A stretch of 64,000 nt of DNA from Escherichia phage vB_EcoM_Kelasse, in sequence record MW749001.1. One strand, 5' to 3'. The notes below the pieces were generated by a model. That model ran no database searches. It was not told the DNA's origin and saw only the letters and a program-made list of their open reading frames with translations. Made by a program: the position numbers and the translations under genes. Positions 40,225 to 45,626 of the stretch are shown here, piece by piece (the first letter of the stretch is position 1; the number at the start of each line of letters is the position of its first letter).

Positions 40225-40614
40225 TTAATCCAAAATATTATTAGGCATTGGTTGAACACTCACAAGTTCTTTAAAGAACTCAGTAGAGTCAGGCAATTTA
40301 ACCATTTCCGGAGCATGCTTACTGAATTTATGTTTACATTGACGGCATTTATATTCAAGCTCTGGTTTACGCCAGTTAATCAATTGAACTTGTTCAGTAC
40401 CGCATTCAGGGCAATTAGGAACGTTTTTAGAAGCTCTTTCACGTCGTTCAACCATAGCCATAATAGCATCCCATGCTGGAGGTTTAAAATCTAAATCGTC
40501 GCAGCCGTGAATCTTTCCACGCATTTCCATATCATCTTCCTCACCAGCCATAATAATTTTAATTAAACTGGAATTACTTGAAGCTGCAATGTCTTCTAAT
40601 AAACGCTTTTTCAT
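40225..40614 (-). CDS. zinc-ribbon protein (129 aa)
   Basis: CPECG...CRQCKHKF four-cysteine motif. Confidence 0.5.
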
Positions 40615-41540
40615 TTCAATACCTCAATAGCATTACGTAAACCATTTGCTTTTGCATTAAGAGCTTTTAACAATTTGGTGTGTTCTGCAATTTGGGCTTC
40701 AACTTCAATCAAACGGGCATTGAGATATTCACGTTCTTCACTCAGATTATCAACCTTTTCTACTTTAGGCTCTTTTACAACTGTCTTATATGTATTAGGG
40801 TTCTTCAGTTTAATTAGAATGCGTGAACTGTATAACATTGAACCATTATCTTCGGTTTCGTCATACATTTCCACTACGTCCATAATTTTTAACATCATGC
40901 GGAGTTTATAAGACAACGAACGAATAGTTTTGTTGTGCTTATTAATTTCTTTAGCTGTCATGGTGCCAAGATTACGTGAGTAATAATAAGGAACCTGGAT
41001 ATTAATTAATACTGATGAACCACCTGGCTTGTGTGTTACTTCATCAGCAATAACCCAGTCCTTAACATGAACTGTATTTGTACGGTCATCGCCCGCGGTA
41101 AATAGTTTGCGAGCATGCTTAAAAAGCATATTCACTTGGTCATTGAATTGACAAGCAAATTTATCAGCAAATTTAGTTTCAGGAATGGTAGAAAACCAAT
41201 CAGCCAAATGAGTCTTTTTAACATCATTAACAATAGTAAATTCAACCAAATCGGTTATAGATGTCTCAGATTTAATGAAGCTCGGCTTCATAAAGTTTTT
41301 AATGTTCTCATGAGCTACAGTAGAAGATAACATACGAGAACGTTTAAACCATTCAAGCAAATTGCCTAACGAATGAGAATAAGCGTTTTGAGTATCTTTA
41401 CAGATATGATTTTCCTGACCAACATATTGAAGGAAATCACGAAGAATATTATTGATTACTGCTCTGTGCCCGATCTGATAATTACGGTGTTTAGTAATAA
41501 GACTGTCAAAATAATCAATATAATGTTTACGAGTTTTCAT
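40611..41540 (-). CDS. hypothetical protein with C-terminal coiled coil (309 aa)
   Basis: N-terminus MKTRKHYIDYFDSLI resembles next gene; C-terminal heptad-rich 45 aa. Confidence 0.55.
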   Translation of the reverse strand: MKTRKHYIDYFDSLITKHRNYQIGHRAVINNILRDFLQYVGQENHICKDTQNAYSHSLGNLLEWFKRSRMLSSTVAHENIKNFMKPSFIKSETSITDLVEFTIVNDVKKTHLADWFSTIPETKFADKFACQFNDQVNMLFKHARKLFTAGDDRTNTVHVKDWVIADEVTHKPGGSSVLINIQVPYYYSRNLGTMTAKEINKHNKTIRSLSYKLRMMLKIMDVVEMYDETEDNGSMLYSSRILIKLKNPNTYKTVVKEPKVEKVDNLSEEREYLNARLIEVEAQIAEHTKLLKALNAKANGLRNAIEVLK

Positions 41541-41592
41541 ATTCTTCTCACTTGGTTAATGGTTTATACTCCGAGCCATCCTTGGCTTTAAA

Positions 41593-42645
41593 TTACTTAA
41601 TTAACTGTAAAGCTTGTTCAAGACGATCAAGACGATTAACGGATTCTTCCCAAATCTTTTTAGCCTGCTCATATTCTTTCTGCGCTTTATTAGAAATTTC
41701 TAGAACTTCTTTATAAGCTTTTTCTAATGCAATAACTTCTGGACGAATTTCTACCGGTTCAGGTGAATCATCAAGACATTCCATTAGTTCCTCAAGGGTA
41801 GTTTCTTCTTTAGGAGTATTCACAATTTCATCACATTTTTGTTGGTAAATTTCTTTACTAGTAGGTGAATAAGCACATTTCACTTCACGAAGACTAATTA
41901 CAATTTTATATCCTTCCCATCCGCATATATTCTTAAAAGGATATGTATGAATATTTTCTACTGTTTCCATACAAAGTAATGCAGTCTCTAACTGACGAGT
42001 TATAGTGCTAGCAATTGAGAAAAATTTATTAATGTTCTTTTGGTTAGTTTCTGGTGTAAAAAATCCATAATTCACAAAAATAGCTACTTTATTTTTATCA
42101 AGCTCATATTCTTTTATGATAATCATATCAGAAGCCAAAGGATGAATTTGACGATAATCGCCATAGCATAATTTAGAAGCTGATTTTAAAATTTGCTTTT
42201 TGAAAAGTCTGAAATTACTAATCCAACGACGAGTAAAAATATTCTCAGGGTCTTCTTTATTATTAAGATGATAAGAATTAACATCACCGAACCAATTATA
42301 TCCTACTACATCTTTAGTTCGTTTAATTTCTTTCCCAAAATTACCAAGAATATCCCGATTAACCAAATATGAAAGAAGACGAGACTCTTTAAAGGTTTTC
42401 TTGATAACATCTTTATCTACACGGCTAGAAATTTTACGAATTTCATGAATAAATTTAGTAGAAGAAACAATACTTGCATCAACACTATTGAGCCATTGAT
42501 TGATAATAGAAAGAACGATATTTTGACCAAACATCGGTATAGCTTTATCATCAATAACGCTATTGAATGATTTGATATATTCGTTACGAGTCATATTAAT
42601 CTCCTCAGTAGAAAGTAAGAACATTATACCACATCCTTGTGGCAA
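41593..42645 (-). CDS. hypothetical protein with C-terminal coiled coil (true start probably near 42594)
   Basis: Early promoter -10 lies inside track N-terminus; GAGGAG Shine-Dalgarno before internal MTRNEYIKSF. Confidence 0.55.
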   Translation of the reverse strand: MPQGCGIMFLLSTEEINMTRNEYIKSFNSVIDDKAIPMFGQNIVLSIINQWLNSVDASIVSSTKFIHEIRKISSRVDKDVIKKTFKESRLLSYLVNRDILGNFGKEIKRTKDVVGYNWFGDVNSYHLNNKEDPENIFTRRWISNFRLFKKQILKSASKLCYGDYRQIHPLASDMIIIKEYELDKNKVAIFVNYGFFTPETNQKNINKFFSIASTITRQLETALLCMETVENIHTYPFKNICGWEGYKIVISLREVKCAYSPTSKEIYQQKCDEIVNTPKEETTLEELMECLDDSPEPVEIRPEVIALEKAYKEVLEISNKAQKEYEQAKKIWEESVNRLDRLEQALQLIK

Positions 42646-42652
42646 AGTAAAC
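42624..42652 (-). promoter_or_regulatory. T4 early-type promoter
   Basis: Minus strand GTTTAC, 17 nt, TGGTATAAT. Confidence 0.55.
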
Positions 42653-43536
42653 TAGTTCAGTGCATTTAGTGCATTGTTCAGTTTAGAACGTTGCTTCGTG
42701 AGATTTTTGACTTTTTCTTGTGCTTTTTCTAGCATCTTTTCAGCTTCTAACACTTCATTGGTCGCTTTAACGAGTTCATCATCTACTGCCTTAAGGGACT
42801 TCTCAATCGCATCCGCGTGCCATTTTTCAACAGGTTTAAGACTCGGATTTTCAATAGGAAGAAAATTCACTTTATTGAATTTCCATGCATCTTTATTACC
42901 TGAACTATACATCCAAAATTTAGGATCATTTGACGAGTAATTAGATAAATTTAAGTTATCTTGCACTTCCTGCTTTTTCTCTTGCGGGACTTCGTCCTTT
43001 CTCAAAAAATCGTATTTAAATGAAACGATCATATCAAGTTCATATGTTGTCGTATCTAATTTAAATCGTTCGAAATGCTGCGAAATCTTAGATTGAACAG
43101 CAGCAACAACATCCATATACTTAAATGCTTCTGTCAGCTGTGATTTAAGACATTCACAAATTGAAAGAGAATTTTTTGTATTAGGTTTAAAGCTAATTCG
43201 TGCAGTTCTATTATTTTCTTTTAATGGTCTTACTTCCATCTGAAGAGTATAACCATCAAATTTCAGGTTCTTTAAGTTAATATCAGAACCTTTTAATCGA
43301 CTAGCCGTCGACAAAATTTGCTTTAATTGTTTACGGAATAGAGCAATAAATCTCCATTCAATACGATAATGATTTGGATTGAAAAATCCAGATGATAAAT
43401 CGACCTTACTCTGACCAACACCTTGAACAAATAGAGGATTTTTATAATCAATAGTTTTACAGAAATCGGTGAGCTGCTCACGAGCAGTCCATTTGAGTAA
43501 TATACCCTGCTTCATTAAAATGACGTAACCATTCAC
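42652..43536 (-). CDS. hypothetical protein with C-terminal coiled coil (294 aa)
   Basis: ORF track; 5' end overlaps 43478..43672 in another frame. Confidence 0.5.
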   Translation of the reverse strand: MNGYVILMKQGILLKWTAREQLTDFCKTIDYKNPLFVQGVGQSKVDLSSGFFNPNHYRIEWRFIALFRKQLKQILSTASRLKGSDINLKNLKFDGYTLQMEVRPLKENNRTARISFKPNTKNSLSICECLKSQLTEAFKYMDVVAAVQSKISQHFERFKLDTTTYELDMIVSFKYDFLRKDEVPQEKKQEVQDNLNLSNYSSNDPKFWMYSSGNKDAWKFNKVNFLPIENPSLKPVEKWHADAIEKSLKAVDDELVKATNEVLEAEKMLEKAQEKVKNLTKQRSKLNNALNALN

Positions 43537-43672
43537 TGCTATTCATATATTTAAAGTGAATATCACGATTAACTTTATCAGGGTCTAAATTATTTTGACA
43601 CAAAAATGTCATAACATCACGAGTATAGCTGGCATTACGAACCATATCTTCAATTTGAGAACGAGTTTTCAT
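43478..43672 (-). CDS. short ORF (64 aa), possible N-terminal fragment of the downstream gene
   Basis: Begins MKTRSQIEDMV like neighbouring paralogs; overlaps 42652..43536 by 59 nt. Confidence 0.4.
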   Translation of the reverse strand: MKTRSQIEDMVRNASYTRDVMTFLCQNNLDPDKVNRDIHFKYMNSSEWLRHFNEAGYITQMDCS

Positions 43673-43680
43673 GGTGTTCC

Positions 43681-44589
43681 TTAAGATTTAAGTAAATCGA
43701 CAATTTTAATTAACTTTTCACGCTCAGATTTAGCTTTACTACTCAATCCAGATAGTCTGAAAATTTCATCGTCATAATGTTGAATAGAAATATTCAGCTC
43801 TTCAATTTGCTTATTAAAATAATCAATTTGTTCAGAATGTTTTTCGTTACTACGAACTGGTACAGGTTTTGTAGGCAATTTAGTTAAACTGGATTCATCC
43901 GGGCGATAAATTAAAATGCAATTTGAACCAATCGGGCATTTAGCACCAGATGAATATTCTAACGTTCCAGCTTCTTTTAAAACTTCAAAAGCTAAACAGA
44001 GATGATGCCCCATATTAACATAATCTGTAGAGCGAGCTCTGACGTAATAATCATCGCCGCGAATACTAAATTTAAAGCATTTAAGGTCTTCTGTATTATT
44101 GGTCTTAAAAATCATTTGTTTATCTAGACCTTTAGCTAATCGAGCGCCTAATGCTAATAATCGTCGTTGATTTTCCCACAAATCTGCGATCATTTGGTCA
44201 AATGATAATTTCGGCATTAGTCGACCGTAAAGATCATAGCCTTTATTATAATTGCGAAGAATTTCACTTGCATTAATACGAGACAATGCTCCAATTTTAT
44301 TAAGGGCTTTCATAATGCGATTAGATAAACCCATTCCAGACCCGTTTGTTCGCTGTAAATGTTTTTCTAATCCAAATCCAATATCAACTTTAAACTTATC
44401 TAAAATTTCTGCATGAACATCTCTGTCAATAACATTCAAATCCAAAGTTGGGTTAAATCTATGAAAAAATTTATCTGGCTCTCCACGACGAAGTACAGTC
44501 CATTCATTCAATTTTTTATTAACTAAAGATTTAATTACTGCATTGACATTATTAATTACTACTGACATATTTTCCTCACTCAATTTCAA
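43681..44589 (-). CDS. hypothetical protein with C-terminal coiled coil (302 aa)
   Basis: ORF track; C-terminal heptad-rich region. Confidence 0.55.
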   Translation of the reverse strand: MKLSEENMSVVINNVNAVIKSLVNKKLNEWTVLRRGEPDKFFHRFNPTLDLNVIDRDVHAEILDKFKVDIGFGLEKHLQRTNGSGMGLSNRIMKALNKIGALSRINASEILRNYNKGYDLYGRLMPKLSFDQMIADLWENQRRLLALGARLAKGLDKQMIFKTNNTEDLKCFKFSIRGDDYYVRARSTDYVNMGHHLCLAFEVLKEAGTLEYSSGAKCPIGSNCILIYRPDESSLTKLPTKPVPVRSNEKHSEQIDYFNKQIEELNISIQHYDDEIFRLSGLSSKAKSEREKLIKIVDLLKS

Positions 44590-45038: not shown

Positions 45039-45626
45039 TTATGCGAGTACCGTCTTTAACCGTTCTTCAAACTTCCGAAGAGTATTCTGGCGTTCAGCTC
45101 TTTGCTTTTTGTAAGTTTCAATACGCTCTGAAATGAGAGTGTATCGTTCATTTACTGATTCTTTCATAAAATCAGGAATTTCACGAGAAGCTTTAATCTC
45201 GTCAAATTTATCAATAACAGCTTGCTCTTCAGCAATTAAGTTATCATACATCAAAATATCTTTCTTGATGAACTCAATATCTTCTTGAGTTACACGAGAT
45301 AATTTAGATGCTTTATCCTTTTTGTACTGTTCGTTAGTATCACGAGACCAGTGTAATGTACGATTTTTATTCGTATTTTTGTAAATTTCTACAATACCAA
45401 TCTCATCGATAATAACGATCCAATTCCAACGAGATTTGTAAATTTGTCCTCCATCAACCGTGATTTCACCTCCAATTGAGATGTCATTAAAGAACTTGCT
45501 TTGAGCTTCAGATTTAAATTTACCATCATTGTAGTTTACCAAGTTGAAAATATCTTTAGCATTCATTTTCTGTTCCTCCGTAGTTGATAGTTGTATAGTA
45601 CCACAGAGGAACGGTCTTGTAAACAA
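45039..45626 (-). CDS. hypothetical protein (true start probably near 45566, about 175 aa)
   Basis: Early promoter inside track N-terminus; GGAGGAA Shine-Dalgarno before internal MNAKDIF. Confidence 0.55.
   Translation of the reverse strand: MFTRPFLCGTIQLSTTEEQKMNAKDIFNLVNYNDGKFKSEAQSKFFNDISIGGEITVDGGQIYKSRWNWIVIIDEIGIVEIYKNTNKNRTLHWSRDTNEQYKKDKASKLSRVTQEDIEFIKKDILMYDNLIAEEQAVIDKFDEIKASREIPDFMKESVNERYTLISERIETYKKQRAERQNTLRKFEERLKTVLA
45595..45624 (-). promoter_or_regulatory. T4 early-type promoter
   Basis: Minus strand GTTTAC, 18 nt, TGGTACTAT. Confidence 0.5.

Follow-up and report, generated by a model that had tools for sequence, protein, structure and literature searches.

A split nrdC.5 in a probable nrdC.3-nrdC.6 paralog block of the T4-like Escherichia phage vB_EcoM_Kelasse

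Phages related to T4 carry a run of large genes near nrdC in their early region, and one of these, nrdC.5, has a published function against host defense. Here, we describe four such genes on the minus strand of Escherichia phage vB_EcoM_Kelasse, in a 64,000-nucleotide stretch of sequence record MW749001.1 (the window; all positions count from its first letter). We consider it likely that they form the nrdC.3-nrdC.6 paralog block of a T4-like phage, encoding factors of a counter-defense type, in which nrdC.5 is frameshifted and the frameshift is not programmed. The genes are already catalogued as T4 open reading frames (ORFs), their families are held in Pfam and PHROGs, and the frameshifted nrdC.5 allele counts as new at the level of a strain variant alone. 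What is added is that three separately filed families (PF26897, PF23882, and PF26899) probably share one architecture and one origin, and that structurally similar tandem genes, as far as predicted models indicate, occupy the same slot in distant Straboviridae.

A megablast search with the 4.8 kb around the four genes matched 656 phage records, nearly all from Tequatrovirus (T4-like phages infecting Escherichia, Shigella, or Yersinia), the top match being vB_Eco_Solly (98.5% identity); by sequence comparison, the window is the early region of a Tequatrovirus. The T4 reference annotation lists nrdC, nrdC.1, nrdC.2, nrdC.3, nrdC.4, nrdC.5, nrdC.6, nrdC.7, and nrdC.8 in the same order and on the same strand, and the four window genes are therefore taken as orthologs of T4 nrdC.3 (308 amino acids [aa]), nrdC.4 (333 aa), nrdC.5 (340 aa), and nrdC.6 (275 aa); T4 nrdC.7 is a membrane protein. 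An earlier note, made from the letters of the window, had listed the same ORFs, and its coordinates were borne out, all on the minus strand. Their extents hold as mechanical ORFs; the starts of nrdC.4 and nrdC.6 do not, being shortened by conserved ATGs at 42594 and 44568.

The nrdC.3 ortholog (40611..41540, minus strand; 309 aa; start MKTRKHYIDYF; C-terminal helix at ~265-309) matched phrog_1435 end to end (E = 8e-116) and was identical (100%) to its counterparts in Sf22 and BW-1. The nrdC.4 ortholog (41593..42594, minus strand; 333 aa from the conserved ATG, MTRNEY), for which the mechanical ORF (41593-42645) reaches back to a TTG at 42645, has a Shine-Dalgarno sequence (GAGGAG) before its ATG, matched phrog_1435 end to end as well (E = 2e-168), and was 98.8% identical to T4 nrdC.4. 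The nrdC.6 ortholog (43681..44568, minus strand; 295 aa from the conserved ATG, MSVVINN) lies within a mechanical ORF (43681-44589) that reaches back to a TTG at 44589; a Shine-Dalgarno sequence (GAGGA) precedes the ATG, and the protein matched phrog_2257 over residues 1-295 (E = 5e-152). Pfam files nrdC.3 and nrdC.4 together under PF26897 (Phage_T4_Y04OP), for which all nrdC.4 homologs carry a precomputed hit. Neither protein matched this family in our direct Pfam scan, the library copy used probably being without that model. nrdC.5 is filed as DUF7235 (PF23882)/phrog_2351 and nrdC.6 as PF26899 (Phage_T4_Y05B)/phrog_2257, PF26899 being carried by nrdC.6 homologs at 95-98% identity.

Between nrdC.4 and nrdC.6, where relatives encode nrdC.5 as one protein of 334-342 aa, the window has two ORFs that share 59 nt (43478-43536) in different frames. 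The 64-aa ORF (43478..43672, minus strand) starts with MKTRSQ and consists of 62 native nrdC.5 residues followed by DCS and a stop; the 294-aa ORF (42652..43536, minus strand; GTG start) holds residue 63 to the end, out of frame. The earlier note had correctly described a 64-aa ORF beginning MKTR that precedes the third gene and overlaps it by 59 nt in another frame. Alignment with Solly and T4 placed a 1-nt insertion at 43489..43490 (minus strand; GG on the coding strand in place of a single G in relatives, CC on the plus strand), the context reading CAAATGGACTGC in the window and CAAATGACTGC in relatives. As aligned, the two ORFs are one nrdC.5 (42652..43672, minus strand; 1021 nt, against 1020 nt in the closest relatives), cut by a single extra G after codon 62. 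With one G removed, nrdC.5 translates to 339 aa with no further disruption visible, occupies the same position in the gene order as T4 NrdC.5, is 93% identical to it, and covers the whole DUF7235 profile (positions 1-307/307; 407.6 bits with a cut-off of 30; E = 5e-122). It differs from the T4 gene in that its frame is broken by an insertion found in no other record searched. Full-length homologs in databases are single proteins of 318-342 aa (Mosigvirus and NC-G copies, 299-300 aa), and the window gene, unlike these DUF7235 relatives, does not form one uninterrupted ORF. nrdC.5 DNA matched 495 phage records; the matches to the best 12 of them are 1020 nt long, Sf22 being the closest among these 12 (99.3% identity) and its annotation showing one gene, gp259.

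Ahead of the 64-aa ORF, both the native Shine-Dalgarno sequence (AAGGA) and the native ATG are kept. Translation from this start would stop after 64 residues, giving the first four helices of an N-terminal bundle followed by DCS, and would leave 277 codons downstream of the insertion out of frame; residue 62 stands at the start of the helix bearing the most conserved motif of the family. The 294-aa ORF (internal ATG at 43515) showed no convincing ribosome-binding site in its sequence.

A 71-nt query laid over the insertion point matched 281 phage records, none of which had the extra base (the best aligned at 70/71 with one gap), and the exact 35-nt pattern with the insertion was absent from IMG/VR, where the pattern without it is present. 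As read from these matches, the split is thus either a frameshift peculiar to this strain or a lone sequencing error. We lean toward a real inactivating mutation, in which case nrdC.5 would be a pseudogene. That the extra G is instead a sequencing or assembly artifact, and that the phage really encodes an intact 339-aa NrdC.5, seems to us somewhat doubtful. Such an artifact would account for the change being one base in a GG dinucleotide, for its uniqueness among the 281 records, and for the state of the remaining gene, which is 99.3% identical to an intact allele and, once repaired, runs through DUF7235 end to end. GG is, however, too short to count as a long homopolymer, and the extra G is the only unpaired indel within conserved coding sequence in the ~45 kb aligned to Solly, the closest relative, which argues that the window sequence is not generally error-prone. 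Furthermore, public data repeatedly show nrdC.4, nrdC.5, and nrdC.6 alleles that are truncated and seem to be frameshifted, and the T4 reference nrdC.6 itself diverges toward its C terminus, making real inactivation plausible in a dispensable block.

The four proteins were then compared with one another. By BLASTP, nrdC.3 and nrdC.4 share 24% identity over 226 aa (E = 6e-6) and are, from their sequences, clearly paralogs; the N-terminal pattern that the earlier note had seen in the first two genes thus reflects real homology, both falling in phrog_1435. Family alignments built from database homologs and neighboring genes in fetched loci were compared for all pairs as profiles (hhalign), with the C-terminal 65 residues trimmed off to keep the composition of the coiled coil from dominating the scores. 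nrdC.3 aligned with nrdC.4 at 98% probability (E = 2e-13, 210 columns), nrdC.4 with nrdC.5 at 77.5% (E = 2e-5, 138 columns), and nrdC.4 with nrdC.6 at 85% (E = 7e-6, 204 columns), and a merged nrdC.3+4+6 profile found nrdC.5 at 87-94% probability (E = 4e-6 to 9e-8); reversed-sequence controls gave E = 0.35-0.76. Of the checks proposed in the earlier note, pairwise alignment detected similarity between nrdC.3 and nrdC.4, and profile alignment with the coiled coil excluded detected it between nrdC.4 and each of the other three. A helix motif reads FKRSRMLSSTVAHENIKNFMK in nrdC.3, FKESRLLSYLVNRDILGNFGK in nrdC.4, FNEAGYITQMTAREQLTDFCK in nrdC.5, and LNKIGALSRINASEILRNYNK in nrdC.6 (consensus, ~F-K-x-S/A-R/G-x-L/I-S/T-x(3)-A/N-x(3)-L-x(2)-F-x-K). 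M(K)TRxEYIxxF opens nrdC.3, nrdC.4, and nrdC.5, and distant nrdC.5 homologs begin MITREEFIASM or MKIKTRAEYASSY. That nrdC.3-nrdC.6 are a single diverged family, with nrdC.4 as its hub and a less stable link to nrdC.6, is in our judgment likely. Of the diverging paralog family suggested in the earlier note, the nrdC.3/nrdC.4 pair is clear; nrdC.5 and nrdC.6 join it only at the profile level, through nrdC.4.

Beyond the genes' own families, Pfam and NCBIfam scans returned only subthreshold hits. One of these covers nrdC.3 residues 30-86, which resemble the N-terminal SAM-like (core-binding) domain of tyrosine recombinases (PF02899, E = 0.12 in Pfam; NF001399, E = 0.003 in NCBIfam); the match may be a hint on the N-terminal helical bundle, or noise. 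An exhaustive HMMER search with nrdC.3 returned only 4 cluster representatives, all nrdC.3 itself.

An ad hoc 28-residue score for heptad periodicity was run over the 95 minus-strand ORFs that reach 80 aa or more, and z-scores were taken against whole-protein shuffles. nrdC.3, nrdC.4, nrdC.5, nrdC.6, and nrdC.8 all fell within the ~11 best scores of the 95 ORFs (17.1-22.7; z = 4.7, 3.1, 5.1, 2.1, and 3.6, respectively), each with its best window at the extreme C terminus (residues 271-298 in nrdC.3), and this clustering of C-terminal heptad segments is far above chance. nrdC.6 is the weakest case, with a Gly/Ser break within the segment. AlphaFold2 predicted a single uninterrupted terminal helix in nrdC.4 (residues 285-332) and in nrdC.5 (residues 283-341; predicted local distance difference test score [pLDDT] of this helix, 74-89), and nrdC.3, nrdC.4, nrdC.5, and nrdC.6 all close with L-x-x-A/I-L/I/V-x-x-L/I-K/N. 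The four consecutive ~300-aa proteins with heptad-rich C termini reported in the earlier note were thereby recovered. The terminal helix most likely forms an oligomerizing coiled coil. The nrdC.8 ortholog (45039..45566, minus strand; 175 aa, PF26901; best heptad window, residues 145-172), which lies two genes upstream of the four, was considered as a fifth family member and rejected (hhalign E of at least 0.04 against all four families).

The AlphaFold2 model of nrdC.4 (pLDDT, 79.9; predicted template modeling score, 0.65) comprises an N-terminal helical bundle, an alpha/beta center of hairpin, helix, and hairpin, a poorly ordered linker, and the terminal helix. Foldseek searches of BFVD with this model found an nrdC.3-like protein of Yersinia phage fPS-65 (E = 1e-8) and the predicted structure of JS10 nrdC.6 (E = 1.9e-5), both at template modeling (TM) scores of 0.3-0.46, as well as uncharacterized ~300-370-aa proteins of T4-like phages (Straboviridae) of Pectobacterium, Acinetobacter, Enterobacter, Erwinia, Serratia, and Klebsiella (TM score up to 0.49). 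The nrdC.5 model was built on a shallow alignment and only its terminal helix exceeded a pLDDT of ~75; its secondary-structure elements come in the same order as in nrdC.4, in a model too poor to judge the fold, and its BFVD search gave one significant match and a weak overlap with the nrdC.4 list via Erwinia phage Cronus. Structure prediction, which the earlier note had also proposed, was accordingly informative for nrdC.4, through its matches to nrdC.3-like and nrdC.6 models, and not for nrdC.5. Sequence searches of the PDB with the three profiles found no solved structure, nor did an informative fold relative emerge.

Between nrdC and nrdC.10, Acinetobacter phage Acj61 has two adjacent uncharacterized genes, the products of which, p120 and p121 (L010 40452-42472; 330 and 304 aa), were both hit by the nrdC.4 model in Foldseek (E = 7.5e-7 and 5.4e-6). 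Each has a heptad helix at its end, and the p121 linker motif PLQDLIDKL resembles the nrdC.4 consensus TLEDLID; their sequence-level link to the family was not significant. Fold, synteny, and architecture suggest the relationship.

The function of one member is known from T4. A T4 mutant with a lost genome segment could not plaque on E. coli ECOR17 and did so again once dsr1, a host gene for a SIR2-domain protein, had been deleted; cloned dsr1 shielded MG1655 from the T4 deletion mutant, which regained infection when T4 nrdC.5 was supplied from a plasmid (Srikant, Guegler and Laub 2022, eLife 11:e79549). Dsr1 itself has been described as poorly characterized (PMC13464706), and gp49.2, the product of a gene near nrdC, inhibits OLD defense (PMC13096335). 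Anti-Dsr1 activity was thus demonstrated with plasmid-expressed T4 nrdC.5, of which the window allele is a frameshifted ortholog.

We propose that the four proteins are diverged paralogs built of an N-terminal helical bundle, the conserved helix motif, a central alpha/beta module (hairpin, helix, hairpin), a low-complexity linker, and a C-terminal amphipathic helix of 45-60 residues, and that they would act as early accessory counter-defense or host-range factors. The proteins would be made early, the C-terminal coiled coil would oligomerize them, adding avidity or assembly, and the globular part would bind a host immune protein, with the variable central alpha/beta module setting specificity. 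A phage with a broken nrdC.5 would then be sensitive to Dsr1-type defense, if the base is real.

Several points weigh against this account. From sequence alone, an error at a GG dinucleotide and a real mutation are inseparable. The direct hhalign comparisons of nrdC.3 with nrdC.5, nrdC.3 with nrdC.6, and nrdC.5 with nrdC.6 were not significant (probability of at most 1.5%; E = 0.03-0.15), so that the four-way homology hinges on nrdC.4 as hub. The nrdC.4-nrdC.6 link is itself unstable (85% probability without the coiled coil, 24% with it), a merged nrdC.3+4 profile reached nrdC.6 at only 2-19% probability, and the profiles have a low number of effective sequences, which may render hhalign E values optimistic. 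The nrdC.5 model is poor (pLDDT, 47.5) and its fold search essentially uninformative. Oligomerization by the C-terminal helix is suggested by heptad periodicity and a monomer model, the mode of NrdC.5 action on Dsr1 is a proposal only, and experimental support concerns nrdC.5 alone, the function of nrdC.3, nrdC.4, and nrdC.6 being what we infer from it.

On part of this evidence, nrdC.3 and nrdC.4 could be paralogs and nrdC.5 and nrdC.6 unrelated proteins that acquired coiled-coil tails independently, the block being a mixed set of early host-takeover factors. Pfam and PHROGs do keep three separate families, nrdC.8 is an unrelated neighbor that also ends in such a helix, and a mixed origin would be in keeping with the three nonsignificant profile comparisons and with an nrdC.5 model too poor for a fold test. 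We regard it as unlikely. The nrdC.4-nrdC.5 and nrdC.4-nrdC.6 alignments are collinear over 138-204 columns and far above the reversed controls, even the nonsignificant pairs have their best local match each time on the same motif helix, and the nrdC.4 model matches an nrdC.6 model in Foldseek; all four proteins also share the extreme C-terminal signature and are similar in length and in the order of secondary-structure elements. A single diverged family remains the preferred reading.

The 64-aa ORF invites two further readings. The earlier note had offered a frameshifted or a programmed-frameshift gene; the frameshift stands, as the 1-nt insertion relative to Solly and T4, and a programmed +1 ribosomal frameshift yielding both the 64-aa product and full-length NrdC.5 is hardly credible, for although the ORFs overlap by 59 nt and the 64-aa ORF has its stop codon within a 5-bp hairpin (GTGAG-CAG-CTCAC), no relative among the 281 site records or in IMG/VR has the two-frame arrangement, leaving nothing conserved to program, the shift would have to occur in the 12 nt between insertion and stop (GAC UGC UCG UGA), where neither a prfB-like slippery codon nor an upstream Shine-Dalgarno stimulator was seen, and the hairpin is weak, with its stem broken in T4 (GTGAA...). 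Nor is the 64-aa ORF a conserved independent gene, the outcome that the earlier note had set against its own suggestion: it is the N terminus of nrdC.5, which is a single ORF in relatives. A conserved 70-71-aa ORF with two long hydrophobic stretches does separate nrdC.6 from nrdC.5 in more distant phages, Mosigvirus-like ones among them (NC-G, MN01, and a Logan contig; L004 5777-5992, L005 4838-5050, and L006 4826-5041), and is absent from the window and T4. It was considered as a counterpart of the 64-aa ORF and rejected, its hydrophobic sequence seeming unrelated; the nrdC.5 homologs of these distant phages bear their own M(K)TR N terminus. To judge by its sequence, it looks like a small membrane protein unrelated to the 64-aa ORF.

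The block varies widely among T4-like phages. nrdC, nrdC.1, nrdC.4, and nrdC.8 are at least 98.8% identical between the window and T4. The window nrdC.3, an ortholog of the T4 gene, belongs to another allele class and is 61% identical overall (N terminus, ~90%; center, 36-56%; coiled coil, 76%), and tblastn found three nrdC.3 allele classes (>92%, ~75%, and ~60% identity) among otherwise close phages; as compared here, the center of nrdC.3 appears to be a hypervariable module. Gene content also differs: the window and T4 have four large genes (nrdC.3, nrdC.4, nrdC.5, and nrdC.6), NC-G and MN01 have three, without nrdC.3 and with the 70-71-aa ORF, in Mosigvirus ESCO47 the block consists of one nrdC.6-like (325 aa) and one nrdC.3-like (317 aa) gene (L007 3965-5954), and most of the nrdC.4-nrdC.6 stretch is missing from the Escherichia phage Tequatrovirus N2 (L009 3781-6605).

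Individual alleles are rearranged as well. A chimera (P0120; 3 contigs, up to 167 kb) joins nrdC.5 ~144-275 to nrdC.3 137-end at an FN..VN microhomology, removing the end of nrdC.5, the whole of nrdC.4, and the start of nrdC.3. The nrdC.6 of Shigella phage Sf25 (P0122; 378 aa) contains a tandem duplication of ~83 residues, IRAHSTDYVN...QIEEL occurring twice. Truncated nrdC.4, nrdC.5, and nrdC.6 alleles are present in public data (P0039, P0117, P0118, and P0136), several with unrelated, frameshift-like C-terminal tails. Two independent truncated nrdC.5 alleles (P0117 and P0118) both diverge just past NLSNY in an Asn/Leu-rich low-complexity linker (window ~42850-42900), where intact alleles read DNLNLSNY or DNLNLNLSNY; this linker may be a slippage hotspot. 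In T4 (NC_000866), nrdC.6 (275 aa; L001 10067-10894) continues after ...QIEEL with an unrelated tail, IFLFNNMMMKFSDYLD, and is without the C-terminal coiled-coil helix; the window copy, 93-100% identical to it over the first ~260 residues, retains that helix, and the T4 reference nrdC.6 looks, on this comparison, like a frameshifted allele. Plasticity of this kind (deletions, a chimera, a duplication, frameshifts, and a variable nrdC.3 center) fits accessory host-range genes, and given the deletions, chimera, duplication, and truncated alleles, loss of nrdC.5 in the window by a point frameshift fits the same pattern.

DSAD1 of SPbeta-like phages is an inhibitor of the SIR2 defense protein DSR2. 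Compared by description, it resembles T4 NrdC.5 as a phage protein countering a defense-associated sirtuin and differs in its target (DSR2, not Dsr1) and in belonging to another phage lineage. The anti-defense islands of T-even phages (dmd-tifA-adfA; gp49.2 anti-OLD near nrdC) are likewise early, dispensable, fast-varying clusters, some members of which inhibit immunity. nrdC.3-nrdC.6 differ from these in that they appear to be diverged copies of one architecture, not unrelated small inhibitors, and in that their proteins are large (~300 aa) and coiled-coil-tailed.

Upstream of nrdC.4, a promoter scan and direct reading gave a consensus match to a T4-early-type promoter (42623..42651, minus strand; GTTTACT, a 17-nt spacer, and a TG-extended TATAAT), which we list as a candidate. 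Of the neighboring genes, nrdC.2 (window 40225-40614) encodes 129 aa, against 104 aa in T4 (60% identity), and has a zinc-ribbon-like motif (CPECG...CRQCKHKF) that is kept in the NC-G, MN01, and ESCO47 copies. Homologs of nrdC.1-nrdC.11 are widely labeled "thioredoxin, phage-associated" (e.g., OY720021 Solly_090-101). This label was rejected for the four proteins, for which no thioredoxin-family match was found, and appears to be a carry-over from the nrdC.x gene names.

The finding extends an existing observation with modest additions and leaves current understanding standing. In annotation, the split ORF pair should be entered as one disrupted nrdC.5, not as two genes. Should the extra base prove real, Dsr1-carrying hosts are predicted to restrict this phage, its counter-defense probably being lost, and this prediction bears on the choice of T4-like phages for therapy or typing. 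Because the three families probably share an architecture and one of them has a proven counter-defense role, nrdC.3, nrdC.4, and nrdC.6 are, like the corresponding genes of other T4-like phages, good candidates for new defense inhibitors. More tentatively, nrdC.3-nrdC.6 and the tandem genes between nrdC and nrdC.10 (e.g., in Acj61) might together be one old, Straboviridae-wide superfamily of immune antagonists, oligomerized by the coiled coil, with each paralog aimed at a different defense protein through its central module. Were this so, nrdC.5 against Dsr1 would be the first solved case, and strain-specific loss of copies would reshape host range.

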